A stretch of 61,913 nucleotides of DNA, the filler included, from Sphacelaria rigidula (Eukaryota): NCBI GenBank assembly GCA_964200075.2. It is 11 parts of 11 records of this genome, joined end to end, with 100 filler letters (N's around TTAATTAATTAA, not from the genome) between each part and the next. Parts side by side here need not be neighbours in the genome. Positions count along the whole stretch, not along the records: positions 28,191 to 33,728 come from CAXNAA020026520.1; 10 more parts are not named here. One strand, 5' to 3'. Shown here piece by piece: positions 13,060 to 57,681 of this stretch (position 1 is the stretch's first letter; every line of letters starts with the position of its first letter). A model generated the notes under the pieces. The model did no database searches, was not told the origin of the DNA, and saw only the letters and a list, made by a program, of their open reading frames with translations. Position numbers and translations under genes: made by a program.

Positions 13060-14510
13060 GGACGCGTCGCGTGAGGAGGGTTCAAGCTGAGGTAGCTGCA
13101 AAGGCGGCTGGCCCGTGATTGATCCAGACTGGAGACTTGCTGGAGCTGCATGCAGCGGGAGTTTATAGGACCCCACGGCTGTGTGGTGCGGCGATGAAGG
13201 CAGGTGTGAATTGTGGAGTTCGAGAAGGTTCAGAAGCCTTCGACTAGGCCTGCTCGGAAATGTCGACTGCAGAGATACCGACCGAAGAGCCAGCGGAGAC
13301 GACCATAACCCCAGTTGTTCTGAGAGAAGAGTTGCGGCCTCCCAGTTACGGGAATGTTTATTCTGAGTGTGCTTCTCGTTCGTTTTATTCGAAATATGTG
13401 GAATACAAGAAGCGGGGTCACACAGCAGGGAGTGCGGTAACGCATCCGGTGGTATCCACGGCGCAACTCGTGCCTACCCCCGTCCAACGTGTTTTAGCGA
13501 GGAGGTTCCACGAGAAGAACACAATAACGCCGCTGCAATTGGCTGCAGCGATCAAGAAGCCTGCAGGGTATGCGGCGGGCGCTGAGGTAGAGCTGACCCA
13601 GGCGTCCGCGGCCGTGGCGAAGGCTGTCGCCATGAACCACAAGGGGAAGACCATGCGTGAAAGGGTGAAGCCAATCATGGGAAAGTTGGAGACATACTTT
13701 TCAGAAAATCCCAACGTCGAGATGGTTTATCGTTCCTCCGATGGGAAATTTCGTCCAGGGCCCGCTGCGGTGATCACGAAAGCGACGGTGGAGGGTCTGG
13801 CACCGGCGGAATTCAAACAGACCGTGCTTGTGAAAGTACAGCACGAAACCAATTGGAAGTCAGACCCGTACTTAGTTATGGATACCGTGGTGTCTGAAGC
13901 CCAGGCATGGCGGAAGGTTGCAGTATTCGGGAAATCACCTCCTTCGTCGCCGCAGTCTTCGACTTCGCGTAACCGCGGATCAAAATCCGCAGGCAGTGCC
14001 GCCGCCAACATCATTTGCTTTCAGTGTGGCCAGGTAGGCCACTACGCACGCAAGTGCCCAACGTCTTCCGAGGGGGAGTCTGGGTACACGAGTGCCGCGC
14101 GCCCTCGCAATCACAACGGAGGAAAAGGTATAACTGGGGTAGTGGCGGAGGCAGATCCTCCAGCGGTGGAGGTGTGCAATCGAGTTCCCAGCAACAGCAG
14201 CAGCAGCAGCAGCGTCAGCGTCAGCAGAGATCCAGTTTTGCGTCCGGCTCAGCCGCAGGGGCTGCTGCTCCGCAACGGGCGGTGCAGGTGGGACCGACCA
14301 CTCAAGTGTCGGGCTCGGTGCCGGCGCCGCCGGCAGCAGAGCAAGGCAAGACGCCTGCTGCTGAGCCGGTCGGATTTCAGCTGAAATTTGGGTCCGCTGC
14401 TGCGTCGGCCGGAGTACTGCTGCAATTTGGTTCTGCGGGCGGGGCTTCGTACCCGCCGGCGGTGCCGGTTACTCCAGCGAGGGCGTCTTTGCCTGCGCCG
14501 CACGCGCATG
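13060..14510 (+). mobile_element. gag: Ty3/gypsy family G1: 5' leader and gag (ATG 13260, frameshift near 14135), truncated before the protease
   Basis: CCHC knuckle CFQCGQVGHYARKC; leader and protein colinear with the minus-strand element at 47450-50215, which continues into PR-RT-RH-INT. Confidence 0.85.
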
Positions 14511-22611: not shown

Positions 22612-25600
22612 ATGTTTTGTTACAAGTGGGAATGTGTCAGGGGTTCCGTTTTTCGACAGAACGTCCCAAAATTTCGAGGGAAGGACGCTGATTATGCTCG
22701 GTACAGACATGAGCTGGTCAACTTCGCGAGTGGCGAAAGAATTGACTGGGTGTTTACCATGGCCGGCGATAGTTCGCACGGCGTAGATGTCGGTGACCCT
22801 GAACTGGCAATGGGGTATAAAGAAACTAGATACGGGAAGGACACAGTGGCAGCCCACGCGAGGGCGAGACGGATGTTTGTGGCCAGTTTAGGAGGAAAGA
22901 GGGAGCAAGATATTTTGCTCACAGTCCACTCACCTGGTGCGGTTTGGGGAAAAATCGCGGGTGTCTTTCGCCCCAAAACAAATGGGGGCGAGAGCCGCTT
23001 CGTTGGGAAAATTCGATGGAGTCAAGATTGGTTTTCGTGATGATCCAGAGCAAAAGCTTCTCGAGATGGAGGAAATTGCACGAGACCTGAACTCATACGA
23101 GGAACAGCCCCTAAGCGAAAAGCACATCCTTTTGAAATACCTCAACGCATTGCCTTTCGAGTATCACGTTCAGAAGCAGTTGCTGGAGGATCGAGAGGGG
23201 CCGCTGACACGGCAGGTTGTGCTAACTTCGATCCGAAAGCGCTTCGAATCGACCGCTTTGAAGTAGGAACTTTCCCGGCGAAAGAAGTCATCCCCGGGCG
23301 ACCAGGCTCTCCTTGCCAGGGGTGGGACCGGAGAACCGAGCGATTCACACCGCAAGGGAGAAGCGGGAAAACCTCGGGGCTCTGGTTAGAAAAGCGGCGG
23401 GAACCAGAGTTCCAGTAGCTCTGGGTTGGCATCGTCGGACGGCAAACCGGCGACTGTGAAGCTGCTTCGCTGCCACATTTGCGACGAGGACACGACGCAC
23501 CGAGCCAGGGACTGCCCGAAGAGATACTGCGGCAGGTGCGGTCAACAGGGGCACACGTTCTGGGACTGTCCGAGATCGACAGCGAAGAAAGAAGATGTGT
23601 CGATGGCGATTGGCGCGGCCGACGACGACAGCGACAGCTCCTCCGTTTGTTCGGTGGCAGACGGGGAGGCTTCCACCTCCTTCGACACCACCATCAACGG
23701 CGACACAGGCGAGTATGCATTGAGTGTTGGGCAGGGGGGTGATAGACAGCAGGGTGAGGGCGAACCGTGGGTATTTGACACGGGGATTACCCAGCACTTC
23801 TCCCACGATTCCCATGGGATGACGGAGTACAGAGATTGCAACGGTAGGGTACTACGGTGCGCGGGTGGTAGTACTTACCCGATCGTAGGGAGAGGAAATT
23901 TGTCTCTTGCCTTTAGATCTGATGGGCAGGATGTGATGCTCAAGTTAATGGATGTTAAGCATGCACCTGATGTCCGTCATCACCTTTTATCACTCACGAG
24001 GATCCAAAATATGAGACACACCTACACTGAGTTTCGTGCAGGTTTCAGGGTAGATCTCATTTCAGGCAATTGAAATACCCGGACAACCACGTCAACTCAA
24101 AACGTACGCCCGCCGCCTCGACCAAAGTGGTAGTGACAAGTGTGCTTCGACATATGCTGCTATTGCCCCGGGGGCTTCGCCTAGCCCCCAGATCGCTGAC
24201 ATGAGCGAATTCCACTGTGCCCACGCCCACGTCCACGAGGACTCACTGCGAAAGACGGCGAAACAGCAGGGAAAGCAGCTGGCTGGGGAGCTGCAGCCCT
24301 GCCGCGGCTGCTCAGAAGCGAAGGGACTGCGACGGCCGATTCCAAGATCGACACACACGAGATTAGCTAAGTCAGTGTCTAGGGTGTTTGTAGATCTTTC
24401 CGGCCCGAAACTAGTCAAGTCTTACGGGCGAAAGTCGTACACGATGATAGTCTGAGATGATCACTCACGGCACACGAAGCTGTATTTCCTCCGGAAGAAG
24501 GATGAGGCAGAGAGATACTTCGCGAAATACATTGCATGGGTCTCTCCGAGAAAAATTGAGATAGTCCGCAGCGATGACGGGGATGAATTCTCGGAGGGTG
24601 CATTTGGTGGACCGTGCGACAGGGAAAATATCAAGCAGGAGAAGACAACTGCCAACTCACCCCAATTCAACGATGTTGCAGAGCGAGCGTTGGGTATCAT
24701 CGAAACAGCACACCTTGCGGCCAAGATCCAAGCATCTGAGCTTTACCCAGATGAGCGCATCCCAAATGGTGACAATCCGTGGGCTAAACAGGTAAACTGG
24801 GCGTATCACGCCCTGAACTGCACCGCTACCTCGGCTAACCCGAACCACAAATCACCGCATGAGATGTGGCAGGGATCACCACCAGACGGTGATCTCATTT
24901 CGTTCTTGAAGCCTGGGTTTTGTAAGAGGAAGCAGAAAAAAACATTACAGCCGAAGGTGGAAAAATGCTGGTATTTGAGCCCAGCCCCAGGCTACCCACG
25001 TGACGCCGTACGAGTTTTGACTGTACGAGGATCTATTACCGTGACAAGATATGTAACATGGGGAAGTACGTCCGCCGCCTCCCCCCCGCACACTACAGCA
25101 AGCGATCCAGACGCCGGGCGAGCCGAAGGATTCCAACGTCGATTAACGCCAGGGAGTGAGCGAGGAAAGGATGGAAAAGTCGACAGTGGACACTTCGTCT
25201 AGCGGTTCCTCAAGCGCACCGTCGTCCCCGCCGAGTTCCGTTGGTGGTAGGGGCGGGGCAGCACCGCAGATCCACGTCAGCAGTCGAAGGGGCGCAGTGC
25301 CTTCACCGTCCCCGCGAGGGGGGGGGGAAGGCGGAGTGATACCAGAGATCCCCGTCCCAGATTTTGTCAGCGGAGGGGGTGAGGAGGAGCTGGAATCATC
25401 ATCATCATCAACGCCAACATCAGCGCCGATGACGACACCTACGCCGACGCCGACACCAACGCCGACGCTCACATCGGCATCGAAAACTCCCTCGTCGCCC
25501 GCACTGTCACCCTCTTTCACGGGTCCCTCGCGAAACGGCGGGGGGGGGACGGCGACGCTCCCCAACTCCCGAGGACCGAGCAACGCCGTCTTGCGTGGGC

Positions 25601-27485
25601 CGACGAGTTGCCAACACCAAGGGCGGGGAGTGCGAGGAGCCAAACGCGCGAGGCCATGGGGTCGGCACACACACGAGGCGAAATGCTGGTGGCTAGTGGG
25701 GCGGAGGAAAGCAAAAAGGAAGCGGAGATGGCGCTGGCGGGAGTGGCCGACGACAAATGCTCAACCGTGGAGATGATCACCGCGGCAGCAGGACAGGTGG
25801 CAGAACAAGACGCAATCGCCTCGATCCAAAACGAGTTAGCCGAAAGCGAGTTTTTTTTTGCTGAGGAAAAGAGAGTAGGGCAGCCTGAACTCGGTTTGCG
25901 TTGGTCTACATGTGAGCAAAATAGAGACAGCCCCCACTAGTATGGATGACATAGCAGAATCAGAGTTTCGAGGTGCATGACTAGGCGCGATGCAGGCCGA
26001 ACTAGGAGGTCATGAAAAGGCTGGAACATTTTCGACTGGCCCTGTACCGGAAGGAGTAAACGTGATCTCAGCGAAGTGGGTTTTTAGTTGGAAAACTGAC
26101 GTAGATGGTGCTATAACGAAGGCAAAGGCAAGGTTGGTAGCACGAGGGTTTGGACAACGTTTTGCAGTCGATTATTTCGAGACTTTCGCGGCAACGCCCT
26201 CCATGGCCTTCATCAAACTGGTCATGGCAGTGGCAGTTCAGGAAGAGTGGCGGCTGTATCATTTCGACGTGACACAGGCTTTTGTTCAAGCAAAGATGGA
26301 AACTGACGTGTACATGAGGCCGCTTGAAGGTTGCGCCGTTTTGACAGACATGACCGTTAAGCTAGAAAAATCTATTCATGGGATCAAGCAAGCGGGTAGG
26401 CAGTGGTCTCGTCTTCTGTGCCAAACTTTACTGGAGGATGTCGGGATGGTGCAGAGTGCGGCTGACCCTTGTGTTTCAAGATGGAGGATGCAGGAGACGT
26501 GCATGTGATTTTAGTTGTCCATGTGGACGAGATTCTTATCAGTGGTACTGAGGAAAAGGTGGGAAACGTGGGCAAAATCCTGAACAAAAAGTTCCCCACG
26601 AACAATCTCGGAGAGGCCACATGGTACATGGGGTGTGCAGTGGATAGAAACTGGGATAGAGGCACGCTGTCGGTGACGCGAATCACGTTCACGGACACGC
26701 TCCTAAAGCGTTTTGAGGTGAGGGGAGGCTCGGAAACCCCTGCATCTGTTTCTGTCAAGTTGGGGCCAACAACGGGCGAAGACACAGTAGTGAATCGCCC
26801 ATACCGTAACGCAGTGGGGGGATTGGTGCGGCTGGCAACAGTCACTAGACCTGACATCGCGAGTTCAGTACGAGCACTCGCTCGCCGATCACATGACCCG
26901 TGCGAGAGGCACTGGGAAGCTGTGGTAAAGGTGCTAAAGTATCTAAATGAGACAAAGGAGTTTGGAATTACGTTCAAGAAAGATCATGACAGGCTTTCAG
27001 TTTATTGTGATGCAGACTACGCTAAAAAGGAAACGGATAGGCGCCTGGTCTCAGGGGTAGCTATAATATACGGTGATGCGGTAGTGTCGGCAACGAGCTG
27101 CACGCAACACTGTGTGACTTTATCAACCGCGGAGGCAGAGTATGTCGCAATGGCCGAGGAGGCAAAGGAGGAACTGTTTGTATAGGCATTGTTGACGTTC
27201 CTGCGACCTCAGACTGTGTCGGGATGCGGGGAGGGCCACGGTGTTGTTTTGTACGAGGACAAGCAGGGAGCGAAAGCTCTGACCGAAAATTCCCTCAGTT
27301 CCGAAAGGAGTAAGCACATCGACGGAAGGTATCACTTCATCCGAGTGCTGGTGGGGACGGGGAAGATCAGAGTTGTGCATGTAGGTTCAGGATGGCAGCA
27401 TGCTGATATTTTGACGAAGCCTCTCACGATCAACCTGCTTACGAGGCACAGACGGTTTTTGATGAACTTGGAAGGTGACAAGTAG
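22612..27485 (+). mobile_element. gag-pol: Ty1/copia internal region (gag-PR-INT-RT-RNase H), decayed by stops and frameshifts
   Basis: Knuckles CHICDEDTTHRARDC and CGRCGQQGHTFWDC; protease WVFDTG; HCAHAH...CRGC; integrase VFVDLSGP; RT AKWVF..KAKARLVARGF, HFDVTQAF, VHVDE; RNase H YCDADYA, STAEAEYVA, RSKHID, ADILTK; INT-before-RT order defines copia. Confidence 0.97.
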
Positions 27486-27915: not shown

Positions 27916-28231
27916 CATTTTTTGCTGAGGCGCTTCACTTCAGGAGCCTCTCGATGACTAACATGTGAGCCATAGCGTGCAGCCTCAAAAAACTCTCGGA
28001 CTAAAACCTACAACAGAGCAATGCTACGGTAGGGGTGCAATTTTTTCGCGAAATTTTGTCTGGTTCAGAGGCTCCTAACGATTCTAGACGNNNNNNNNNN
28101 NNNNNNNNNNNNNNNNNNNNNNNNNNNNNNNNNNTTAATTAATTAANNNNNNNNNNNNNNNNNNNNNNNNNNNNNNNNNNNNNNNNNNNNATCCCGAGGA
28201 AGGGGAGGGGTTCAAAGTGTGAGGAAAAAAA

Positions 28232-28324
28232 AAACACGGATCGTGTGATCGTCGATATTCACACTCACATCCCAACCGTCACAAGGTTTCGAGGACAATA
28301 ACTGAGTCACCGGGGCGACCCGGC
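28232..28324 (-). mobile_element. SINE S1 head, degenerate
   Basis: Reverse complement GGTCGCCCCGGTGACTCAGTT...AAACCTTGTGACGGTTGGGATGTGAG resembles the 1279 copy. Confidence 0.65.
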
Positions 28325-28341
28325 CTGAAAAGATTTCAATT

Positions 28342-28649
28342 GCCGCGCCCTGGTGGTGTAATGGTCCGACTGTCGACATTGGGGTGGAAAGAACGAGGGT
28401 TCGATTCCCAATGCGTTGGGTTTTTTCTTCGTAATATATTATTTCCACCGTGGGAAGCGTGAGAACGTGAGTAAACAAAGTAGACAACTGAGTTTGTTTG
28501 ACGTGAGTTGACGCGGAGCGTGAGTGCTGACCCAATCCGCGAGACCAAAATGTAAGGCGTGTACCGGGGAGAGATGGGCTGATTCCCTCGAGACCACGGT
28601 CTCGTCCCGAGGAAGGGGAGGGGTTCAAAGTGCGACAAAAAAAAAAAAA
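28342..28649 (+). mobile_element. Full-length tRNA-derived SINE family S2 with poly(A) tail
   Basis: A-box TGGTGTAATGG, B-box GGTTCGATTCC (28398-28408), body shared with 33999-34291, tail GAGGAAGGGGAGGGGTTCAAAGTG (also at 28191-28232), A13. Confidence 0.8.
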
Positions 28650-28757
28650 GCAGTGAAAGAATGTCGCAGGACTCCGGCAGAACATGAGACGCCGGGTAAA
28701 ACGATGAGGACGGGTATCTGTCGGACCAAGCCTGTAGCCCACAAAGGGTTCACTCAC

Positions 28758-29021
28758 CGTATAGTACTTGTTCTTGTTGACGTTGTCTCGTACCCACGTA
28801 AGGTTCATGGGCCTGTTGATGATATCGAAGTACCTTGGCGGAGCGTCGTTCCTGGTGAGCACTCTGCTGAAGGGATTTTTCCAGCCGCTCCACTGCATGC
28901 GCATGAGCTTAGTTATGAGCGGCTTGACGGCCGATTTTAACGTCGTCGGGGTCGCCCTTGATGATGATCCCGAGGCGCCATCCTCGTCCGCATTTCGCGG
29001 TCTTTTTGCGATGTTGGCCAA
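28758..29021 (-). CDS. Internal exon encoding the N-terminal half of a bromodomain
   Basis: Acceptor TGCAG|TTG, donor ACG|GTGAGT, 264 nt, phase 0/0; NPF...PPRYFDIINRPMNLTWV...NKYY matches the bromodomain ZA-loop/helix A signature. Confidence 0.85.
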
Positions 29022-30269
29022 CTGCAGACGGGTCGGATACGAGACGCAAAAGGTTTAGGCGAGAGCAGTTCCGACCCTTCACCTTGGGTACGTCCATCTC
29101 ATGACCACAGCTGAAATCTTAGCGGACCAGTGAAAGTGCTACAACTGTTGCAAGCAAGCAACTCAAGCGAGTCCAACCTTTTGCAATGGACGCTGAAGCT
29201 ATGCACACACAGGCATATATTTCAGTGCTAGGTTGAGATAGGCAGTAACTATGACAGCATCGGGGTCGGGACGGCACGGGTATGTTGTTGTACGGGACGG
29301 AACGGTCCATCCCCTGCAATACTCGCGGGATAAGTGAGCCTCATCCAGTGGTATCCCGCCCCGTCTCGTCCTGCCCTGACCAGAACTGTAAATCCCGTCC
29401 CGTGAGATCCCGTTCCGCCACATCCCGTCCTCCCCAGTACATGTGTGTAAACACCCCAAAACCAGTTCTTTGAGCCAGGATCTTGTGGCGCCGACTCTTC
29501 GGCACACTTGTGAAGCAGCAACCAGCGCTTCTTCACACACGACGAGCGCCGAAAAATGGTTTAATCGAACGATAACAAGCGCAACCAGCGACACATAGAC
29601 ACTCACCCCGACTGCCGGAGGAAAAAGCAACATCCCATACAGCATACAGTTCAAGCACAATAAAAGCAGTCAACCAGCACCCGGCTTGTACTCCTCATGA
29701 TGACGGGGCGAATAAGGTCATCAATGTACCGTGCGTGACGACGTACATCACCGATACGTGAAATAACTCCCCCCAGCAACAAACAACATCGAGGTGGTGA
29801 GGGCTTGTCTTTACAAACCGAAATCGAGATTGAATGCGAATTCAATGTTGCGGTTTAGGGTCCGGCATCGGCTGCGAAAATTCTTCGAACATGTATCAAA
29901 TTTGGGCCCAAAGCGCTATGGTAACAACAACAGCTGAAAAACTGACCCTAGGGGTTGAAATGTTGACCAAGAGAGGTTGCGCTGCATCCCAGACAGTACT
30001 CGATAGCTCTCAGCATACAGTGGTCAGCGTCAGAAGTATACAGAATTCGTAATTTCTAAGTTTCTCGAAGATTTTCCAAATTTGTTTCGCTTGCCACCGC
30101 TCATCACAGTGACTATTGGATGCCAAAAAAAAGGCATCTGGAGATATTTTGATCCTCTTGACGAATATCGAAAGAAAAATATCTGCGATCAATACTGAGT
30201 GACTTACGGGCTTGACGTATCTTCGGGGGTCCTGCGAAAGTGCAACCCCAGGTTCTAGCTTTTCGGTAT

Positions 30270-30900
30270 TGTCGGTGGATCGACTCAATCCCGATCATAT
30301 AAGTGAAGACTCAAAAATGATTATTTTTTCGAAATCCCACCTATTTACTGCGCCAAAGCCGGAAAACTATGTTTCTTGGACCACTTACGGTCGATGACAC
30401 CTTCCTGATAAACGGGGTCTTTGCTCCGTATCGCCCCCACAACACCAACTTGGGCATTGTGATTTGAGCACGATCTGCTTACTTTGCCAAAACTATCGAC
30501 GCTAGCACTTTCGAGTGCTCATGGAAAATGTTATGGGAAAAAAACCCCGAAAAAAGGACATCCGCAGAAAATGCTAGACTGAGGTCTGTGCAGTATAGGA
30601 GGGGAACACGATCTCGATCGTTATTGTGAAAAACTGTATACATTTTCGTTTATCTGAACATTTACAAGTTCGTTGCGGACTAGCCGGAAAACTGTTTTTA
30701 TTGGACCAAAAACGGCCAATAACACCCTGCTGATACACGGAGTATCTAGTCCGTATCGCTCCAAAACCACCAACTTGGGCACTGCAGTTTGAGCGCGGCC
30801 TACGCTGTCCCCCTACATCTACCGGCGCTAGTACTTTCAAGTCGTAATGAAGAATAGTACTCGAGAAAAACTCAAAAACTACAACAACTACGAATTCTGA
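30270..30900. repeat. Two diverged tandem copies of an ~325-bp unit
   Basis: AGCCGGAAAACT, TCCGTATCGC..CACCAACTTGGGCA and CGCTAG.ACTTTC each recur about 325 bp apart. Confidence 0.7.
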
Positions 30901-30988
30901 AGATTTTTTATGCTGACTACTATAACTCTTACTCAACCACCCCGGAACATCTACGGCACTCATTCCCAGACGAGTACGCTCAGTTGGC

Positions 30989-32051
30989 GTGGGGGCTGAT
31001 TTGGGATTGGCAGAGGATATTACATCCGCGCCACCACTGTACACCCTGACGGATAGGAGAGTAGTGCTAGGCCCAGGATCATCGTGGATGTGGGAATATC
31101 GGGGGTTGTTTCACGACGGAGCTGAGTCACACTGGCTTTCAGAGGAGGAGGCTTTAGACAGCTTCACTGGGTTACCAGCTGGACGTTTTTCATGCCTTGT
31201 GGGAATTATATCACCCGCAGACTAGACCACGTCCATCTGACACACCATCTCGAGCAGAAAGAGACTCAATTGCTCGGGATAAAGCGTTACGGCAGATTCC
31301 CCGAGGTACAAAGATACGTGAGCGGTTAGCAGACAGCCAAGGTGAGCAACAGAAGGGGTGGTTTCCCTCGACCGTACTATCGCATCAAGTATGAGGATGG
31401 AGACTAAGAGGAGTAGCTACAGGTACGAAAATACGCGGTGGATGCCGGAAATGCCGGAGCAGTTCACGGGTCAAGGGCGAGCGACACATACCTGAGTCGG
31501 ATGGTACAGGAGGAGGTGACTCCTCAGCTGAATTGTGAACGGGATCACTTCTGTGCGCTCTTTGAATTCCCCACGTGGTCTAACCCGCCGGAGCGGTCAA
31601 TAAGATCGAGAACTTCGAAAGACTGGACAGGATTGTTTCTGTACGGTGTTCAAATTGCCTGCATGGTCCAACCAGGCAGAGCGGTCGACAAGATTGGGGA
31701 TTGCTCCAAACTGCCTGAGATCGTTCTTGCACGGTGTTCAAATTCCTCACGTGGTCTACCCCGGCGGAACGATAATCAAGATCCAAGACCACGCAAAAAG
31801 ACCTCGATTACTCGGGGAAGAGGAACATGGTGACGCGGCGATTTATCGTCGAACCACGTTCGGTCCCAGGGGTCTTTCAATCGTAGGTCTGACGGGGGGT
31901 GTTATGGATCGCGGCGTTATGGTGGGAGGGTAATACGAGGATGAGCACAACTATTCGACTGATTGGCTCGGAGGGCTGATTGACGCGACCTACGGGTATT
32001 GCAACCAGAGGAGAGGAAGGGTGTCGGTTCATGACGGTTATAGACACGCCT
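30989..32051 (+). mobile_element. 3' end of an LTR retrotransposon: chromodomain-like + Tudor-like tail, three ~88-bp repeats, PPT and LTR (TG at 31900)
   Basis: LTDRRVV...WEYRGLFHDGAESHWLSEEE, then ALRQIPRGTKIRERLADSQG...RPYYRIKYEDGD*EE; GACGGGGGG|TGTTATGGATCGCGGCG; homologous to 5844-6500(-). Confidence 0.75.
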
Positions 32052-32769
32052 CCGTGTGCTGCACGAAAATTGTTCTGCGTTGGACGTAACCTCTTTTCCT
32101 GGATATCGCTTGCTGCGCATTTTGCTGGTTGGTTGCGAAGAAACGGTGAGCCAGAACACGAATGCGCATAATATTGCATGTAAATTGATATGGCGCGATT
32201 GAGATAAGAGTAAAAACAAACTAGTGCATAGGCAAGAGTGATGAGGTACTAGATTTGCGCTTCTCGTGTATGTTAAAATTGTATAATAATCAAAATGACG
32301 GTGACGCATGAGTTTGTGTGCCCGTGGGTTAACGAAATTTGGGCCGCTTACTAGAAATCACGATACGCATCGCATCGCTGTTCGCGCTGCAGCAACGCCC
32401 AATGAAGATGACGAGCTTATAAGCCGGTCTGTCTATTACATTCACTGTTCAAACCACTTTCGAAAGTCCAACTTTCGAAATTGAGGTAAGAAGGGGCGAG
32501 TTAGAACCGGGGTCGGTCGAAATTTGAAACAGTATTTTGCAGGCCATTCACCAGCCCAGTTTTGGTACTTATACTTTGAAACTTCACGTGGGAAATCGCT
32601 GGGGCATGATGAAAAAACAAAGTGGGACACGTTGAATATCTGCGTGAGTGAAGAACGCCCTAGTATGGTAAAGAACATTTTTACGAGCACATCCTCAACT
32701 CATCGGGAAAGAAAAATGAAGACCCCCTTTCTTTTGTTTTCAGTATGTCGTCGCGATTCTCCATACTCA

Positions 32770-33384
32770 ATTTTAGTCACACTTCTAGATATTGAGCTGA
32801 GAAAATGAGACAAGTGCCAAAAACAACGTCCATTTTGCACTAAAACACCCCCCAAGACAGGTAAAAAAGTCAAAAGTCAGAAAAATATACCAAGGAGCTG
32901 AAAAGATATAGAAATATTCAATATGCCCTAGCGATTTTCCATACCAAATTTCAAAGTAGAACACTCAAAAATGAGACACGAAATCTAGATTTAGTGCATT
33001 TAGTGCCTTTTCTCGTAATATATTGCTTTTATTATAGAATCTTGTGCACGCCTAGATACATAACGAGTGAGATAAATGTGAGGGCATCGATCTTTTTCCC
33101 CTGCTCCAAGGAATGTTCACACCAAAAATTACCATCATCCGAATATATGGTTCGGGGTTTCATAAAGACTTCAGTATGGACGCGATCTCCGTACGGTATC
33201 GGAATTACTCGAAATGGCGTTTAAATTTTAATCAATAAGGAACACTTGGCTCAGACGCTTGAGCAGATGACCATCTTCTCTTTAATTGAACGATTACTAA
33301 GATGTTCGGATCACGGCCGAACTTGTCCATGTCGATGAGACATGGCTGTGGGAGTTTAATCCCTTTTGAGGCTGGCCCAGCTCG
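32770..33384. mobile_element. Family A non-autonomous DNA element copy
   Basis: Colinear with 6725-7331; ends GGCTGGCCCAGCTCG|TA. Confidence 0.7.
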
Positions 33385-33998
33385 TATAACTTCACGCAAT
33401 TCGTTTGTGCTGTTTTTCGGATATCCCTTACTCGAGAATTTGCTTCACACACACAATAGTACAAAGGTGAGGGAAATCAGTAATGTGACTACTAACAATG
33501 TTTCCGTGAAATTGAAAGTAGAGCGGTGATTGAGAGTGGCTTCAACTTGACCAATTTCTCACTCTGGGTCGACTTTCCTTTGCCTGTTACACTGGCGTGT
33601 GCTTACCGCTACACGTCGATATCCCACTCAGAGTCATCCTACGATAGGGGGGGGGGGGTATTTTGGGTCATTTGTTGCTGAAATTTCGAGTCAGATCGTC
33701 GTTGCAAGAAGCAACGGTTTTTCGAACANNNNNNNNNNNNNNNNNNNNNNNNNNNNNNNNNNNNNNNNNNNNTTAATTAATTAANNNNNNNNNNNNNNNN
33801 NNNNNNNNNNNNNNNNNNNNNNNNNNNNGCGTGTCTACCGACGGCGGCCGGGGAACCGTGCCTGGTGGCAGTGTGCAGCGTGGTGGCTATGCGAAATAGC
33901 AGATGTCCCCCCCCCCCCCCGGTCGCTCCGTTTCGAAACGGATGCGTGGTCAATGGTCAAACGGCTAACGCAAGCAACAAATGAGCACGCCCCCCCCT

Positions 33999-36478: not shown

Positions 36479-37963
36479 TCAAACACTACATGCTACTGGT
36501 ACATTCAACCATAAAACAACACTGCGGTAGGTAGGTATGGCTATTACCTTTGAATCATTCTGGTCATCCTTCTCCAGCACGTGCATGAGCCAATCACGCA
36601 GCACCGTGTTGTCGGCGCCTCGCCCGAGCGTCAGAGAGTTTTGCTCCTTTGCCTCTTCGACTCCCAGTGCATCGTCGACTCCTTTGTCCCCTTTCATGTC
36701 GTCCACACCTCTGCTGCCATCCTCTTTTCCAAACTCCCCGATATTGGCCCGCTGGAAAAGGCTCGGTCGCCGAAAGCACCCCAACGGCGTAGGAGCCTCA
36801 ATGCGATGTGGATCTGCTGGCGATTCTTTGGCCACTATCACTGCACGTGATACTGCTCTGCTCAGTGCTTTGCTGCCACTAACTTCTTGGCTATTGTTAC
36901 TGAGGAACGTTTCGGACGTGGAATCGAGGTCGTTGGAGACTACACTTTCTCCGCCTAAAGTTCTGCCCCCTAGACTGTGCGATTTTATCCCTATCGTTAG
37001 GGCGGGTGGAAGTTCTTCCATGCTCGGGACAACATACTCTACGCTGATACTGCGAGGTGCTACCGGTATGTCTTCTTGATTTGCTCTGTCGTAGAGGCTG
37101 AGTTTGCGGAGGCTAGTCTGACCCGCTATTTGCGCATTTGCTTTCCCCACTTCGTCGGAAGATGCGCCCTCTCCTTTTTCGAATCCGTTTGTGCCCTCCC
37201 GTTCAATAACATTAGCTTGGCGTGCTTCGCTAGACACACTCAAGTCTCGCCCAATAGTAACTGGGGCTTCGAATTCGTTTGTTCCTTCCCCTTCAGCAGC
37301 TTGACATCCTTCGCTCGTCACACTCGAGTCTCGTTCAATACTGCCTGGGACTTTGGATCCGTTTGTGCCTGCCCCTACAGTAGCTTGGCGTGCTTCGCTA
37401 GACACACTCAAGTCTCGCTCAATTGTGCCTGGGGCTTCGAATTCGTTTGTTCCTTTCCCTTCAGCAGCTTGACATCCTTCGCTAGACACACTCGAGTCTC
37501 GTTCAATACTGCCTGGGACTTCGGATCCGTTTGTGCCTGCCCCTACAATAGCTTGGCGTGCTTCGCTAGACATCCCCAAGCCTCGGTCAGAAGTGACTGG
37601 GACTTCGAATTCGTTTGTGCCCGCGCCTACAGTAGCTTGGCGCGCTTCGCTAGGCACTCTCGAAGCTCGTCCAATAGTGTCTGGGACTTCGAATCTATTT
37701 GTGCCCGCCCCTATAGTAGCTTGGAGTGTTTCGCTAGACGCTGTCAAGACCCGCTCAATCTTGTCTGCGACTTTCGCTGCGTGTGTCCGTCCGCGGCGCG
37801 CTGCCGGGACGGCCGACTTGTCTCCATGGCCATCGTCGTCAGATAGGACTTCAGGTTGGCTCTGGGGCGATAGGCTAGTCCGTTCCAAAGATTCAATACT
37901 TCCCGGCGAGTGTGCGCCATCTGTACCATCACGCTTCCGTCGAGGGTAACCTTTTTGCGCCAT
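36479..37963 (-). CDS. 494-aa ORF (possibly a large first exon ending at 36548) with about 7 tandem 28-aa repeats; function unknown
   Basis: 1.48-kb uninterrupted frame; 84-bp units; candidate in-frame donor AAG|GTAAT at 36548/36547. Confidence 0.6.
   Translation of the reverse strand: MAQKGYPRRKRDGTDGAHSPGSIESLERTSLSPQSQPEVLSDDDGHGDKSAVPAARRGRTHAAKVADKIERVLTASSETLQATIGAGTNRFEVPDTIGRASRVPSEARQATVGAGTNEFEVPVTSDRGLGMSSEARQAIVGAGTNGSEVPGSIERDSSVSSEGCQAAEGKGTNEFEAPGTIERDLSVSSEARQATVGAGTNGSKVPGSIERDSSVTSEGCQAAEGEGTNEFEAPVTIGRDLSVSSEARQANVIEREGTNGFEKGEGASSDEVGKANAQIAGQTSLRKLSLYDRANQEDIPVAPRSISVEYVVPSMEELPPALTIGIKSHSLGGRTLGGESVVSNDLDSTSETFLSNNSQEVSGSKALSRAVSRAVIVAKESPADPHRIEAPTPLGCFRRPSLFQRANIGEFGKEDGSRGVDDMKGDKGVDDALGVEEAKEQNSLTLGRGADNTVLRDWLMHVLEKDDQNDSKVIAIPTYRSVVLWLNVPVACSV
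37180..37740 (-). repeat. 84-bp coding minisatellite with a 168-bp higher-order duplication
   Basis: TTCGCT(A/C)G recurs every 84 bp (37226, 37310, ...); units SSEARQA...GTN and SEGCQAAEG...GTN alternate. Confidence 0.9.
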
Positions 37964-45102: not shown

Positions 45103-48100
45103 CACGGACCAGTCCACGTCGCCATCAATTTAGGCGTAACTCCCGGGCGACGCACGCGTGCATACAAAACATAATCGCCTACCTCCAAATTCGGCAATCC
45201 CAGCCACGACGAGGATTCCTCACGTCCACGTGCACGTTCAGCGGCAACACGTTTCTGCACTTGGACGTGGAAACGTGCTTGCAAGTCCAAGACTCCTTGC
45301 AATGCACACTGAATTTGAACATCGTCCAAAACATCACACTTCCATTCCCCCGCCGACGTAGACGCCAACACCGAGAAAGACGTCCGAGGAGCACGACCAA
45401 ACATCACGTGGTACGGTGTACTATCGTAACGACGACGATACGCTGTATTGGGCGCCCATTGCACCGCCGGCAACACGTCCCCCCATTCGGAAACCGCTCT
45501 CCGCTGCTCGAGAAGAATAGAGCGAAGAGCACGAACTACCTCCTTGACCATGCGTTCGCACGTACCGTTAGACCACAGAGAATACGCTACCGCAAACCGG
45601 TGATCAACGCGCAAAGCCTCTGGCAATCGGGTCAACATCGCATTCTTAAAATGCGTGGCGGTATCACTCACCCACACACGGGGCACCCCCGAAGTTTTGC
45701 ACCAATTCAGCAAAAGATGCAGCGGTCAACTCAGCAGTACACACTGCCACGGGTTCCAGAGCCACAAAGTTGCCCAAATCATCCATGAATGCCAAAATGT
45801 ATCGAAACCCAGCATCCTCCGACAAACGTTGGGGAGCTAGCGGGCCACTCTCGCCCACGTACAAGAAGTCATATTGAACGACTTCATTCGGCGTGGTCCA
45901 ATGGACCGTTTCGCCGACCGGGCGGGGAACAGCATTTCCCGCACTCGAATCAGCACAGTGAAGACACTGGCGGACAAATTCGCGCACACGAATTTCTACC
46001 CCCTGCCAGACACAAACCTCTTGCAAGCGCAAGAGCGTCGCAGCCACACCACGATGCCCAGCGTTGCGCATGTGCGCGCAAATCATCAAACGTACCTGCA
46101 ACTGCTTGTCACAACTCGGAATCCACAAAACGTTTCGGCCACGCACATGCACACGAAACAGGCCTTCATTGTCCAAGATAGCAGCACCAACGTCCGACTC
46201 GAAAGATTGCACATCCGCATCTTCGGATCCAAGGTCTTTTCGTTGCGCTTGGCGGACAACAGATTTGAAAGGCATCGAGTCATCAGGTTCACAAGGACCA
46301 TACACAGCCACAGCGCGCACAGGCTGTTGAATTTCAACTGTTGAATTTCGACTGTAGGCACCTCCATACAAACTACCCCAATGGCACTCAAATGCATTCG
46401 GAAACATTGACACCTGACAATCAGTACAAGGATGGAGCAGCGTCACGGCATGAGCCACCAAATCCTTCGCTGCCGCCCACGCCTGCAGCCTGCCCTCCGT
46501 CCACGATGCAGCTTTCTTCGGAAACGTCATATCCGGACTGGATCACCCCGCCTGCGAATTCCGTAACACCAACCCGAGCGCCAAAAGAGCCGCCATGCAC
46601 AACACCAACCAACTCGACTTCACCGGATTGTACCGCCACGGCTTTGCCTTCACCGTGGATGTCCCAGGTTTCAGCTTAACACGCATGGGCTCCACGCGCG
46701 CTGGGGGATCACCCCGCAGCGCACGACGAAACGCGTTGACGCGGAAATGCAATATGCCGCGCAGGCGCTTCGCTTTTGAGACGCTGAGGCCTTTCGCCAC
46801 AGCATCCGTCGCGCTCTCCTCCAGCGCGACCTTCCGAGCGAACTCCTCTTCCGCCCGGTCCATAAACATATCCGGGCCGCGCTCCACCGCCGCGTCCCGC
46901 TACTCGGTCCCTTGCCTGCCAGTCTCCTGAAGAGCATCCACCGACAAGCTCACGCGACGACTGCCCAAAAAGGCGTCCGTCTCCACGTGCGGACCAGGCG
47001 GAGGCAGCCGCGTATTGATGGAGTCCTTCAACCGCTTATACGGGTCGACTCCTAGATCCTGTAGCGTCGGCAGTCCCAGAAGAACAACGCCATCCGACCC
47101 TGGCATAGTCGCAAACGAGATCGGAGGCAACGGCGCCAGCCCCTAAGCAGTCTTGAAGGCTAGCTGCAACGGAACAGTACGCTCCGTGACTGACCCATGC
47201 TGACCTGACGCGGTGACTGCCTGCCGCGCCCCGAGCGGGAACGGAATGCGCAGCGGCAGACCCGGGAATTGACGCTCCAGCATCTCAACCATCTGCACCG
47301 GCAGACTAGTGAAATCAGCGCCAGAATCCAACACAGACCGAACCACACTTGCTGCTGTTGATTCAAAAGAAATAAATCCGCCGGAGTGTATCTGTCGGCA
47401 AGTTCCACGGGAGCTTCTTCCGCTGACCTATGCGCCGCTAATCCCACTTGACGCCACGGCTGCGCAAGTTGCGCAGGCCAAGACGCCCCGGCAGGTTCAA
47501 ACGGCACCGCCGGCGGGTACGCCCCCCAGCCAGCAGACCAAGAATTTGGCGATCCTTCAACCAGCACGTCAACCGGCGTCGCGCCTGGCGCTGCTGCCGG
47601 TGTCGCCATCGGCGCCACTACCTGCGCCGGCGCAGTGTTCGACTCTGTAGAAGTCGGGCCCACCTGCACCGCCCGCTGCGAAGCAACAGCACCTACGGCG
47701 GCGCCGGACCCAGAGCCAGGCCCATGCTGACGCCGCTGCCCCTGCTACTGCTGATTCTGCTGCTGCTGCGGCTGCTGCTGAGGGCTCGCCTGCGACCCTC
47801 CATCGCCGGAGGATCCGCCGCCGTCACCACGATTACCTCGTCTGTTGCCCTTGTGCTGACGATGCTGATGGCGCGTGGCACTAGAATGCCCAGACTCTCC
47901 ACCGGAAGACGTTGGGCCATCGCGCGCGTAATGGCCGACCTGGCCATAGCGGTAGCAAGTAATACTCGCAGCGCGACGAGCCGATTTCGAGCCATGGTTG
48001 CGCAAAGATTTCGGCGAGGAGATGGACGACTGGCCGAACACCTCTGTTTTCCGCCACTCCTTGGCCTCGGCCACGACGGTGCTCCACACGTGGACAGATA

Positions 48101-53367: not shown

Positions 53368-56276
53368 CTACAGCGTGTGTGCAAAGAATTTTGAAGTCCT
53401 GCGCTGCACATGAATATGCCAGCACCAATCCCCCACTCGATTCCTTTCTGCGCTCAGATTCTCCGGTAAGAGGTGTACGTTGTATCTCTTCCCCAAATCC
53501 AGCATCCTCAGAGTGTGCGGGCGCTGTTGTGACGCCGCATCCTCTTGCAGACCCATCACCTGCGCTAGAAGCCACCCCGCCGACTGCATTCGACAATATA
53601 CGTAACAACCGACAATTTGCGGGTCATAAACATGCGGACCAGCAGTGGCATTGCTTTTCAACTCATAGCCCTGAGCCACAAACATTTCTCCCCGTTCCCT
53701 AGCCCCCGCTCGTCTCGCCAAGTTTATTCGGTACTTTCGGTACTTCGAGTTGTCTGGCTTGTCCATCCTAGGATTTCCCATCCAATACGTCAAAATTACT
53801 CGTCCATATTGTTTTATGTCCTCCTCATGTTCCCACCTGGGTCTCTCCAAATTCTCCCAATATGATAGATACTGAACGGAGAGTTTTCCCCCCCAAACCA
53901 CGAGATATACGGTGACTCACGATTTTTGTGGGCTTCAGCCTATACATGTCCAGCTGTATCGACACATCCTCCTCGGTTAGGTGTAACGGAGGGGATAGTT
54001 CCGAATATTGATTCAACACATACTGGCTTAACCCCCAGGGTAGAGACTTCGGCGGCTCCGCTTCATCTTTTGGATTGAAGCACCGCTTACATCTCAGCAC
54101 AGAGACTCGGGGACTCATGATTGCCCCTGGTTCATCTTTCCGGAGTTCAAGCAACAGTAGTTTTTCTCCCACGATATCACCCTTTCCCGAAATACCTGGT
54201 CCCACCACCAAGAGTTTATACGGTCCTCGCCAGGAATGTGACAGTTTCGACGATAAAGCTGTTTTTCCCCCTTCGCGTACCGCGTTCCCCCCGGACATGA
54301 TAGTGCCCTTGGAGTCATACACAAAAACCCAATTGCCTACCTCCCACTTCGGTTTGAGATTTAGAGCTTCTTCCACCTGCTCGTTATTTGCTTCGTGTTT
54401 GGATTTTATCAAAAAGTCCTCCTGTTTCACAAGGTCATATGCTTTAGTTTGACGATCCTTCATCAGCTGCAAATATTCGAGTTGGTCCGCCTTGAGTCCC
54501 TGATGGCCCATCACACCTCTTCTCTCTAGGATTGCCATGGGTAACCTTGGATATCTCCTGATATGCACCTCATTCGGCGCTAACCCTATTCCTCTACTTA
54601 CATTGTTGTTATGAGCAGAAATTGCGTGTAACAATAGCTGGTCCCAGTCTTTCTGGTCATCTGCTACCAAGTACGACAACATCTGGCATAGCGTGTGGTT
54701 CAATCGCTCCACCATCCCATTAGTTTGGGGATGATACGCACTCGTGTATTTTTTCACAGCCCCCAACATTTCATAGACTATCTTTGCCACTTTAGCTGTG
54801 AATTCCGTTCCTCGATCCGACAATAGCGTGTGAGGACATCCCCAGCTCGGGATGTAGTCGTGCGCTAAAATGTTCGCACAACCTTCCGCTGTCTTCTCTT
54901 CTTTTGTGAGCGCATACGCTTCCGCATGTCTACTAAACAAGTCCACCATCAAAAGAATGTAGGTATTCCCTTCGTTGATTTTGATAACGGGCCCAACAAA
55001 TCAAATGAAACCATCTGCCCTGGTTGACTCGGCAGTGGTGAGGAAATAAGAGGCCATCTCACTGTATGCCTCGAATTTTTCCTGGCCTGACATGTATAAC
55101 AACGTCTGATCCAGAATTTTACACTGTCCTTCATTCCAATCCACCAGTAATATCGCTTCAGCAAAGATAACGTGATACCTTCCCCCAAATGAATGGCTTC
55201 TTTGTGAGTTTGGTCCATTACCCAAGGTCTCAAAAGCAGTGGCACATACGTTCTGGTAGGCTCTTCGCCTAAATACCTCTCGAACTGTCCCGGATTTCGG
55301 TCCAGCTGACTGGGTATTGGTGTCTCCTTTTTTACTAACAATAATCCTCCGTTCGAGACCTCCACAAGTGTTCCCTGTTTCAATAACCTTTTGAACTCGG
55401 ATAGATCGATTCGTGTGGGAACCCCCTTTTCTTGATCTTTAGTCAACACCGTCACTTGTTTCTTCAGATATTCGATGACTGTTCTCGACGTGAGATCTTC
55501 CTGCTGAATTTGTGCCCAGTCATTTGCCGATTTCTGGCATAACCATTCCCCAAAGTTACAAGCTTCTTCTGCTTCGAGAGTCGGGTGTACCGTTGTTAAT
55601 GGTTCCGCACTACTGATTTTTTCGTTGGTCGTGGGTTCGATGACTAACACGGCTCTATGTTCTTGAGGTCGCAGTAGTCTTCTCCCAATTTCCGTGATCG
55701 GACACGCATCCAAAATTAATCCTTGTTCCTATTGTCCTCTGACCGTGTCACTAATCTGTGGACAAATTATTGGTGTGTCATCTTTTACCACATACGAAGA
55801 CTTTTCCACCTTTCCACTCTCCACCCGTGCACTGATACTATCTCTCGCTCTTTGTAGCTCGATCCATTTTTGGTCAGCTTTTTCAGAGGTTGTGAGCGGT
55901 ACTGCACTTACTTTTCCCCCCCCAATTTTGAAAACTGATCCAGGGTTTAGCCCATTCAAGTTTGAATCGTGGGTGTTCACTACTGACCCTACATGTCCAA
56001 CCCTGGTCGAGTTTTTAATAATTCTCGGCCATGTTCCACTTGCGCCAATAAAATAGACATCCACGTCTCTCGGGTCCGTTATTCGGGCATCCCCAGACAT
56101 ATCGTCATCATCCGGCGGTTGTGGTAAGCGAGACAACATATCCGCATTCGCGTTCACGCGTCCTGGCTTGTACTTGATTGTATAAGTGTACGCACTTGAA
56201 AAGTCGTGCCATCGCTGAACCCTTGGAACCTTTTCTGCAAGGCTCAATAAATTTCGCAAAGGTTGGTGATCAGTAT
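53368..56276 (-). mobile_element. pol: Ty3/gypsy pol 3' part: RNase H end, long linker, H2C2, integrase core, GPY/F, chromodomain and C-terminal extension (few frameshifts)
   Basis: TDHQPL..YKPGRVNANADMLSR; HKEAIHLG..YYWW..CYTCQ; FDLLGP, SDRGTEF, NGMVERLN; WRGPY; IVSHR..QYLSYWENLERPRWEHEEDI. Confidence 0.95.
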
Positions 56277-57681
56277 NNNNNNNNNNNNNNNNNNNNNNNN
56301 NNNNNNNNNNNNNNNNNNNNTTAATTAATTAANNNNNNNNNNNNNNNNNNNNNNNNNNNNNNNNNNNNNNNNNNNNCAGGATGCCCTTGTCCCCTGGTCA
56401 TCATCCAGGATCCACTATATACTCAATCGTGTCGGCGTGATTTCGCCACAGAGTGCAATTTCGAGAGGAGGCGCTGGTGAAGTATGCGAAACTCGGTACT
56501 GACTAGAAACATCATAGGCACGAACACTATTTAGACCACACGCGTCGGGTATCCGAGTGCTTCCTGATTCTGCATTTATGCAGCGTAAGGATGGGCGTTT
56601 TTCAATTTCGGGTTGTTCCTCAATGTACTACAAGCTGTCTGTCAAGGCATGTATTGCATACACCTCCTCGACATACCGCTCGAACTGTATTGAACTTCTC
56701 TCCAGTGTGACAAACATCCCTCCAACGCATATGAGTAATGCAGAGATATTTTGTGTTCGAACCAGCAACCGCACGTGCTCCCATTTTCACCAGACTGTAT
56801 CAAACACCACCGTAGCCAGCCCAGTACTTCGCGCCAGCGCACCACCAAAAACGGTAGTCTGACAACCCCATGTACCACCCGATAATTTTCACTAAACTTG
56901 TCCAGAGTATAAAATGGTGGTTGCATGCCTTCACGATTACATCCTAAATCACGGTGTCAGCCTCCATACTTGATCGCCGGCCCGGTGTTTGATATTTAAC
57001 AAAACAGGAAAAGAACACACAGCCTGAAGGAACTTTCTCTTCAGCCTCCGGTGATCAACTGCTCCACAAGAATGAACTCAAGCCAACCACGGTTCCCGAC
57101 CACGCACCAAAGCGTCAGCGGTGCGGTCTCGTTTCATGTCACGCGGCCAGCGGACCCACACCTCAAAACCGAGTGAACGTTGGCCGGCGCTAGCTCAGGC
57201 TTGTGGTGTGGGTACAACGGGTCCGATCAGTCCTGGGTCGTTGGGTAAGATCCCGCGAAACCACGCGTGGGTGTAGCTCTCACGATGAAGAATTTTGGCG
57301 TTCCATCATTGGAATTGATCACTCTAGTGTACCACTTCATCGTTCAAACTGTTGGCAGCTACCTCCTCCCCGACCATCGGGGTGGGAGGCCACTTCTTCT
57401 GCAGGTACCCACATACCGAGAGAGAAGCTGCCTCGCGGTATTGTGTTGCTGCCCCTACGGCTATCCATCATATGGTACATGTTAGCCCAGACGTCCACAG
57501 GGCGTCGGGCCCGTTTGTAGTTGAGCAAAGTTATTCTACTGTGGATCATGATCACAGAGAACCCTCGTTTTCCGTTGCTCTACGGGTTGGAGAAGGACCC
57601 CCGGCAGTGACCCGGTCGGTGAGCCAAAAGCTCACACCATCACGAACACTCCCGCGAACTTCCCAACAGTGACAGGTCACG

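Follow-up and report, generated by a model that had tools for sequence, protein, structure and literature searches.

Two decayed 3′ ends of a Ty3/Gypsy family with a conserved middle module and a Tudor domain at the C-terminus of Pol in Sphacelaria rigidula DNA

The stretch of DNA analysed here (the window) comprises 61,913 nucleotides from Sphacelaria rigidula (assembly GCA_964200075.2) and consists of 11 pieces of ~5.5 kb each with N linkers between them. It contains two 5′-truncated, frame-broken 3′ ends of one Ty3/Gypsy family of long terminal repeat (LTR) retrotransposons, copy 1 at 30930–32052 (+) and copy 2 at 6497–5845 (−). The initial annotation had read copy 1 as the coding tail of an LTR element, in which a chromodomain-like module is followed by a Tudor-like one, and had placed a second copy on the minus strand of another contig; the latter does lie on a separate piece of the window, and the tail strings then quoted are present in both copies. 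Its belief that such a fusion had not been described for LTR elements did not survive, since a C-terminal Tudor fusion was published in 2025 for Gypsy-10_Ec32 of Ectocarpus (according to the available text of PMC12477816), and the two dead copies in the window are thus members of a type already described. The parts of the two copies are listed below, where P0001 is an unbroken relative described further on.

Copy 1:
30930–31232, +, remnant of the middle (chromo-like) module of ~90 aa, in three frames (tblastn of P0001 residues 122–218, profile matches)
31233–31289, +, linker between the modules, PRPSDTPSRAERDSIARDKALRQ (sequence reading, tblastn of P0001)
31290–31482, +, Tudor remnant (similarity to P0001 reaches 31482; profile E 8e-4 and 1.7e-5)
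31536–31799, +, array of three diverged direct repeats of ~88 nt, located after the open reading frame (ORF) and before the polypurine tract (self-BLAST offset 88)
31891–31899, +, polypurine-tract-like run GACGGGGGG directly 5′ of the LTR (same junction at 730–740 in the metagenome locus L002)
31900–32052, +, start of the 3′ LTR, TGTTATGG... (alignment; similarity to copy 2 stops at ~32046–32052)
Copy 2:
6291–6497, −, Tudor remnant in one frame, with a stop at 6365–6363 (P0001 residues 239–307, 59% identity in tblastn)
6102–6277, −, two ~88-nt repeat units (alignment with the copy 1 units)
5845–6012, −, purine run (6012–6005) and start of the 3′ LTR (6004 downward) (alignment, junction)

Coding sequence in copy 1 is spread over three frames. 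A stop-to-stop frame at 30926–31225 contains LTDRRVVLGPGSSWMWEYRGLFHDGAESHWLSEEEAL, a second frame at 31158–31394 contains QLDVFHALWELYHPQ...RGTKIRERLADSQGEQ, and the third contributes PYYRIKYEDGD, a stop (31405–31407), EE and a second stop (31414–31416), with breaks near 30990–30995 and 31174–31178 and letters lost at 31353–31361. Copy 2 reads in a frame at 6530–6366 (−) through IRERFADSQGEQEEFDEVVFDFRQPYYRIKHEDGD to its stop, which is followed by EEMTQLQV, and has no sequence of the element upstream of the linker. Alignment of the copies to each other begins only at copy-1 position ~31285 and continues through the ~88-nt repeats to ~150 bases past the LTR junction, with 78% identity across 318 nt in BLAST; no third copy was found when 30800–32200 was compared by BLAST with the whole window. 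The stop common to both copies falls in a column that is aromatic in relatives (W after DGD in 38 of 40 members). A reassigned stop codon at this column was considered and rejected, given that relatives read through it and that copy 1 is further broken. Both window copies encode nothing functional.

When the 99-residue copy-1 frame was used as query in a search for longer proteins, a single match was obtained: P0001, a 312-aa protein encoded on an ENA contig of 1265 bp, with 74% identity across 77% of that frame. P0001 has, unbroken and in this order, an integrase C-terminal domain (…KLVHDLWTGPWVV…), which we take to be of the GPY/F type, a first module (PLYTLTDRKVV…WVWEYRGLFHDGAESHWLSEEEVLDSFTGLQLDVFHALWELY), a linker and a second module (IPRGTKVRKQFEDSQGKLREFEGVVFDFRRPFYRIKYGDGDWEEMTRLELREHVV). 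The corresponding search with P0001 gave 15 matches, 44–52% identical over 60–96% of its length, among which Pfam identified rve in 13, Integrase_H2C2 in 10 and RVT_1 in 5, with the PTM/DIR17-like Tudor family PF21743 (E ≤ 0.01) at the extreme C-terminus of nine. P0002 (1978 aa) and P0073 (1982 aa) are single ORFs with reverse transcriptase (RT), RNase H, integrase and the middle-plus-Tudor tail, and RVT_1, RT_RNaseH, Integrase_H2C2, rve and Tudor occur together in one ORF in these two and in P0011. The RT–RNase H–integrase order in one polyprotein, by which Metaviridae are recognized, is found in these three proteins, the window copies having the tail only; a Pol profile made from seven such proteins had Ty3 Gag-Pol (7q5b, E 8.7e-79) as its best solved relative. 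These results bear out the reading of the segment as the end of an LTR-retrotransposon coding region that, where relatives are intact, shares its frame with an rve integrase.

On the window, P0001 aligns by tblastn to copy 1 through residues 122–310, over three frames, and to copy 2 through residues 239–307. Profiles made from the family relatives and run against the six-frame translated window behaved likewise: that of the middle module matched only copy 1, in three frames (E 9e-25, 1.5e-6 and 7e-4), and that of the Tudor module only copy 2 (E 3e-16) and copy 1 (E 1.7e-5 and 8e-4). Those of the family integrase core and C-terminal domain matched neither copy, and the core had already been reported absent from both.

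A search for proteins of similar length listed 28, of which 27 were new besides P0001. With the modules' own profiles, both were found in 57 of 87 proteins, always middle then Tudor with ~20 residues between, a co-occurrence that is partly by construction, as the sample was seeded with these modules. None of the 87 has the middle module without the Tudor, and the 27 Tudor-only proteins comprise 18 with multiple Tudors and nine short fragments; in 54 of the 57 two-module proteins the Tudor ends at most 43 residues from the protein end. Two natural DNA loci of the family, L001 and L002, were present among 180 pattern matches in metagenome contigs, with no relatives among 78 pattern matches in viral contigs or 91 in genome contigs. 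L002 has the tail unbroken, then a stop, 119 nt and GGGGGG|TGTTA, and L001 has the rve core joined to the tail, interrupted by a single frameshift and a single stop. Seven integrase-bearing members share a mean pairwise identity of 0.64 over the rve core, 0.60 over each of the middle and Tudor modules and 0.57 over the C-terminal domain; for the linker, the value in seven relatives is 0.52. No similarity was detected by hhalign among the element's own three tail modules.

Elsewhere in Pol, a conserved stretch of 570–670 residues lies between RNase H and the integrase zinc finger (~858–1431 in P0002, ~352–1019 in P0011), over which the two proteins align as one high-scoring segment pair with 44.6% identity. 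It had no Pfam match and no match to PDB sequences (including P0002 residues 921–1300). By eye, a Gly-rich loop and two later motifs have what we presume to be a resemblance to C5 methyltransferase motifs, the catalytic Pro-Cys being absent; a cytosine-methyltransferase identity was rejected, as it would rest on motif resemblance only, with Pfam and PDB silent. The available text of the Gypsy-10_Ec32 paper makes no mention of this stretch (PMC12477816).

The GGGGGG|TGTTA junction lies 494 bases past the copy-1 stop and occurs twice in the window, in the two copies only, versus 0.03 occurrences expected; at least two were present in none of 100 shuffles. A polypurine tract directly before a TG-starting 3′ LTR is thus found in both copies and in L002. 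The ~88-nt units of copy 1, when aligned with those of copy 2, have a mean column identity of 79%, and L002, with merely 119 nt from stop to junction, has on reading no such repeats there. Contigs from the sequencing runs have loose ends at 31900 (15 contigs) and their depth drops after ~32031, so that 31900 behaves as an element boundary. To the left of copy 1, an unrelated high-copy repeat ends at 30924, where contig loose ends are seen again. That repeat forms two tandem ~325-bp units (~30250–30924, +), 78% alike, which abut copy 1; its summed word depth in the sequencing runs is ~1e5–2e5 versus 1e2–1e4 over the Gypsy tail, and 70 contigs continue differently after 30924.

Family members with a species name belong to brown algae, namely Ectocarpus sp. 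CCAP 1310/34, Nemacystus decipiens and Cladosiphon okamuranus, and the family is also present in sequences beyond these three species, including one contig labelled marine metagenome. In two sequencing runs that contain DNA of the window, 1308 (X1) and 1287 (X4) contig pieces were recovered for 30800–32100, about half of them less than 90% alike, and some carry single-letter indels relative to copy 1 at precisely the positions where its frame is broken. The family is therefore abundant in the source organism and has other copies without those breaks. In a FastTree tree of ~75 columns, without support values, copy 1 groups with P0001 and P0046, the named Ectocarpales proteins lying elsewhere.

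In its second module, P0001 matches PF21743 over profile positions 1–46 of 48 with 29.8 bits (cut-off, 27.2), and PF21743 was detected in 37 of 43 members of the element family at E ≤ 10. When the copy-2 reading was run by HMMER against all of 1.84 billion representatives, 31 proteins came up at E ≤ 1e-3, 29 of them new and 27 of these 29 with PF21743; some are short element tails, others cellular-type proteins with two to four tandem copies. The element Tudor profile matched all ten host-type multi-Tudor proteins compared (E 3e-18 to 2.5e-38). Given the PF21743 match and these ten matches, the Tudor call is right, including the PTM/DIR17 family originally named for it. As judged from sequence, the element Tudor belongs with the repeats of cellular multi-Tudor chromatin proteins, and it was most likely captured from a host multi-Tudor gene. 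Conserved columns include W/Y274 (41 of 41) and D280, G281 and D282 (39 of 41 each); the aromatic and acidic columns among these are candidate members of a cage that would bind methyl-lysine.

The first module spans ~90 aromatic-rich residues between the integrase C-terminal domain and the Tudor, with W174 in 37 of 37, Y176 in 35 of 37 and W210 in 41 of 42 sequences, and is genuine, its conservation equalling that of the integrase. By eye we take it to follow the chromodomain pattern, with DRRV…, an aromatic-x-aromatic strand, W-x-x-E-x-E and a helix. Among Atlas feature neighbours of P0001 residues 128–222 in named clusters, the rows shown were Chromo, at 0.86–0.89 and hence below the 0.9 bar; for residues 150–216 against all clusters, the first named family was again Chromo, at 0.90 (lead level). 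The best Atlas structural neighbour of residues 150–216 was a chromo-domain protein, with a template modelling (TM) score of 0.60 over 61 residues for a model with a predicted local distance difference test (pLDDT) value of 0.57. What stands of the chromodomain-like module of the initial annotation is a conserved module, a candidate chromodomain with Atlas matches at lead level only and the Pfam result given below. Pfam silence on small barrels is weak evidence here, because Pfam also misses the certain integrase C-terminal domain (no SH3_Tf2-1). We consider that the module is probably a small chromo/SH3-like barrel with a C-terminal helix, and modestly favour a chromo-type fold for it. That it serves as a second true reader we put at somewhat under an even chance, and we are similarly tentative about the more specific proposal of a very diverged chromo-type methyl-lysine reader, which would give a tandem chromo-plus-Tudor integrase reading a pair of marks in chromatin devoid of H3K9 and H3K27 methylation.

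The reading that we regard as highly probable is that both copies are 3′ ends of a brown-alga Ty3/Gypsy element of the Gypsy-10_Ec32 lineage, with a middle-plus-Tudor tail whose Tudor would bias integration. Several observations weigh against it, in whole or in part. Only the start of one LTR was seen in each copy, and no 5′ LTR, primer-binding site or target-site duplication, the copies being without 5′ parts. The Tudor of the window itself (copy 2, with X at the stop) scores 19.4 bits against PF21743 (E 9e-4), under the 27.2 cut-off, copy 1 has no Pfam match, and the Tudor profile had no match among solved-structure sequences. For the first module, Pfam Chromo (PF00385) was found in none of 43 members (E ≤ 10), none of the 15 longer relatives (E ≤ 0.01) and none of the window frames, and the tail profile matched no chromo chain among solved-structure sequences, giving just three chance acetyltransferase matches (E ~0.1). 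The top Atlas feature matches for residues 150–216 (0.92) were unnamed phage proteins, and SH3_Tf2-1 (TM 0.53) and Chromo_shadow (TM 0.52) fit the model, with its pLDDT of 0.57, nearly as well as the chromo-domain protein does. Assignment to Gypsy-10_Ec32 rests on the Ectocarpus protein P0009, 46% identical to P0001 over 92% of its length, and on the description in the available text of PMC12477816, rather than on a comparison of consensus sequences; and targeting by the Tudor is a putative function, proposed by analogy.

In intact members a single Pol ORF carries, in order, RT, RNase H, the long stretch, the integrase zinc finger, the rve core, the GPY/F-type domain, the middle module, a linker of ~20 residues and then a single PTM/DIR17-type Tudor ending ~10 residues before the stop. 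Under the proposed mechanism, the Tudor barrel would hold the integrase–cDNA complex on nucleosomes with methylated lysine, and such tethering may bias where new copies land, as chromodomains do for chromoviruses. The middle module would either read a second mark or support the Tudor, the former amounting to the dual histone-mark targeting put forward in the initial annotation. As far as the available texts of PMC12477816 and PMC13076208 go, Ectocarpus lacks H3K27me3 and H3K9me1/2/3, brown algae have no H3K27 methylation and largely miss H3K9 methylation, and H3K79me2 and H4K20me3 associate with repression and repeats. With H3K9 and H3K27 methylation largely missing, the mark read would have to be another. 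Our first guess would be a repeat-associated mark such as H4K20me3 or H3K79me2, and our second a gene-body mark such as H3K4me1; these candidates come from the repeat association just cited and from the H3K4me1 binding ascribed to PDS5C and MSH6 Tudors in the available text of bioRxiv 10.1101/2024.10.15.618488.

The closest competitor to a two-reader tail, to which we assign roughly one chance in three, has the Tudor as sole reader and the middle module as an integrase-specific spacer, a DNA-binding barrel or a chromoshadow-like multimerisation piece. The absence of Pfam Chromo matches fits it, as do the Chromo_shadow and SH3_Tf2-1 structural neighbours that stand besides Chromo, and the PMC12477816 authors, working with InterProScan and HHpred, list only a C-terminal TUDOR for Gypsy-10_Ec32 in its available text. 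Yet the middle module matches the Tudor in conservation, its aromatics are nearly invariant, it occupies the position of chromoviral chromodomains and Chromo is the only named family among its Atlas feature neighbours in two queries; the Pfam silence, moreover, weighs little for the reason given above. Methyl-arginine, too, is bound by members of the Tudor class, which would allow a Tudor that does not aim integration at all but instead binds methyl-arginine proteins or RNA granules, takes part in particle assembly or blunts host silencing. We think this unlikely, because the nearest cellular relatives of the element Tudor are chromatin-type proteins (with Myb in P0019, with PHD and bromodomain in P0031) and because it is fused to the end of the integrase, the site used by chromodomain-targeted elements such as MAGGY (bioRxiv 10.1101/2021.11.30.470311, from its available text).

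Hardly any weight goes to the tail being a host exon captured once, or a chimera of assembly or gene model. In its favour is P0016 (1916 aa, eukprot), in which the middle-plus-Tudor tail at 938–1109 is followed by 807 residues, which has no Pfam family at E ≤ 0.01 over its whole length, and which is probably a chimeric gene model running across the end of an element. Single capture of a host exon, held up in the initial annotation as the possible undoing of its own reading, is excluded by both modules having the same order and spacing in the 57 two-module proteins, which come from several sources. At the DNA level, the integrase or its C-terminal domain is contiguous with the tail in L001 and L002, the tail, polypurine tract and LTR stand in the same order in the window and in L002, and at least three named species carry the tail. 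A Tudor that would bias integration, preceded by a conserved module that may or may not be a reader itself, is the account we prefer.

Among transposons, the choice of a landing site according to chromatin state is clearest where an integrase bears a reader domain. In brown algae, repeats are silenced in the absence of DNA methylation, H3K9me and H3K27me, so a Tudor-tipped integrase could reveal which mark makes a landing place 'safe' there, and the family is spread widely enough for its insertion sites to be compared with existing brown-alga maps from chromatin immunoprecipitation sequencing. The window copies are ordinary decayed fragments; the addition made here is narrower, namely the unannotated conserved module ahead of the Tudor and, in full-length relatives, the conserved RNase H–integrase stretch.

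The window is repeat-rich throughout. At 53368–56328 (−) lies a different Gypsy element with Integrase_H2C2 and rve, followed across a frameshift by a chromo-like stretch (…LSVQYLSYWENLERPRWEHEEDI…) and a barrel-like stretch, without Pfam matches and without similarity to the modules of the Tudor-bearing family; ORF 53371–53916 there has no PDB match. Other retroelement pieces at 25981–27182 (+), 45103–46542 (−), 13248–14381 (+) and 23390–24070 (+) comprise a Copia-type RVT_2 (E 6e-30), a third Gypsy-type integrase zinc finger, a zf-CCHC gag-like frame and a Pol_BBD frame. A stop-to-stop frame of 279–280 aa at 28215–29054 (−), ~2 kb upstream of copy 1, gives a bromodomain match (PF00439, E 5.4e-5, 23.5 bits) and is probably part of a host gene. 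A 494-aa open frame at 36482–37963 (−), built mostly from tandem peptide repeats of ~32 residues (…SSEARQATVGAGTNEFEVP…), matches nothing in Pfam or among PDB sequences. Rfam gave no matches in 28191–33728 and ARAGORN no tRNAs.

The tail can be compared with several known systems. Cellular proteins with PTM/DIR17 Tudors, such as P0017 (four copies), P0019 (three and Myb) and P0031 (PHD, bromodomain and two), share with the element PF21743 and the signature G-T-x-V-x-K/R-x-F ... P-Y-Y/W-x-V-x-Y-x-D-G-D-x-E-E-L, but have tandem Tudors and no retroelement domains, whereas the element has a single Tudor. In the available text of bioRxiv 10.1101/2024.10.15.618488, plant-type single Tudors of PDS5C/RDM15 and MSH6 bind H3K4me1, and MSH6–Tudor fusions are reported in brown algae too. 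The proposal for the element is analogous to PDS5C and MSH6, with a single Tudor barrel that would tether an enzyme to a histone methyl mark; unlike them, its Tudor profile has no match to any solved Tudor chain.

Like the chromoviruses (MAGGY, Tf1) and the oomycete Chronos, the family has a small reader-type domain after the integrase GPY/F-type domain. The presumed role of chromodomains on Gypsy integrases is to aim integration via chromatin (bioRxiv 10.1101/2021.11.30.470311 and PMC5348765, as far as their available texts go). In contrast to chromoviruses and Chronos, the terminal reader here is a Tudor (PF21743), with the chromo-like module failing Pfam Chromo in all 43 members, and the MAGGY chromodomain is described, in the available sources, as reading H3K9 methylation, a mark that brown-alga hosts largely lack. 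Three Ectocarpus Gypsy lineages have putative C-terminal chromodomains and the Tudor element is a fourth, separate lineage, according to the available text of PMC12477816, which describes the chromodomain-bearing lineages as unrelated to chromoviruses and Chronos and does not state this for the Tudor lineage.

The nearest known system is Gypsy-10_Ec32 itself, described in Ectocarpus (Genome Biol 2025) as an 11,528-bp element whose LTRs measure 636 bp, with a Tudor at the C-terminus and numerous derivatives that arose by deletion (available text of PMC12477816). As in that element, a brown-alga Ty3/Gypsy Pol here has a Tudor at its extreme C-terminus after the integrase, rve lying upstream in 13 of the 15 long relatives. 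The window copies differ in falling into another sub-branch, with P0001 and P0046 (in the short-alignment tree without support values), and in having ~150 bp of shared LTR start to set beside the published 636-bp LTRs. A full-text literature search of limited range found no publication describing a chromo-like module and a Tudor on one integrase, and the available text of the Gypsy-10_Ec32 paper names the Tudor alone. Other publications in which 'Tudor' appears beside transposon terms concern piRNA-pathway proteins or an author of that name. The Tudor fusion is thus already published, and what may be new here is a possible second reader-like module, the conserved module that we note ahead of the Tudor.

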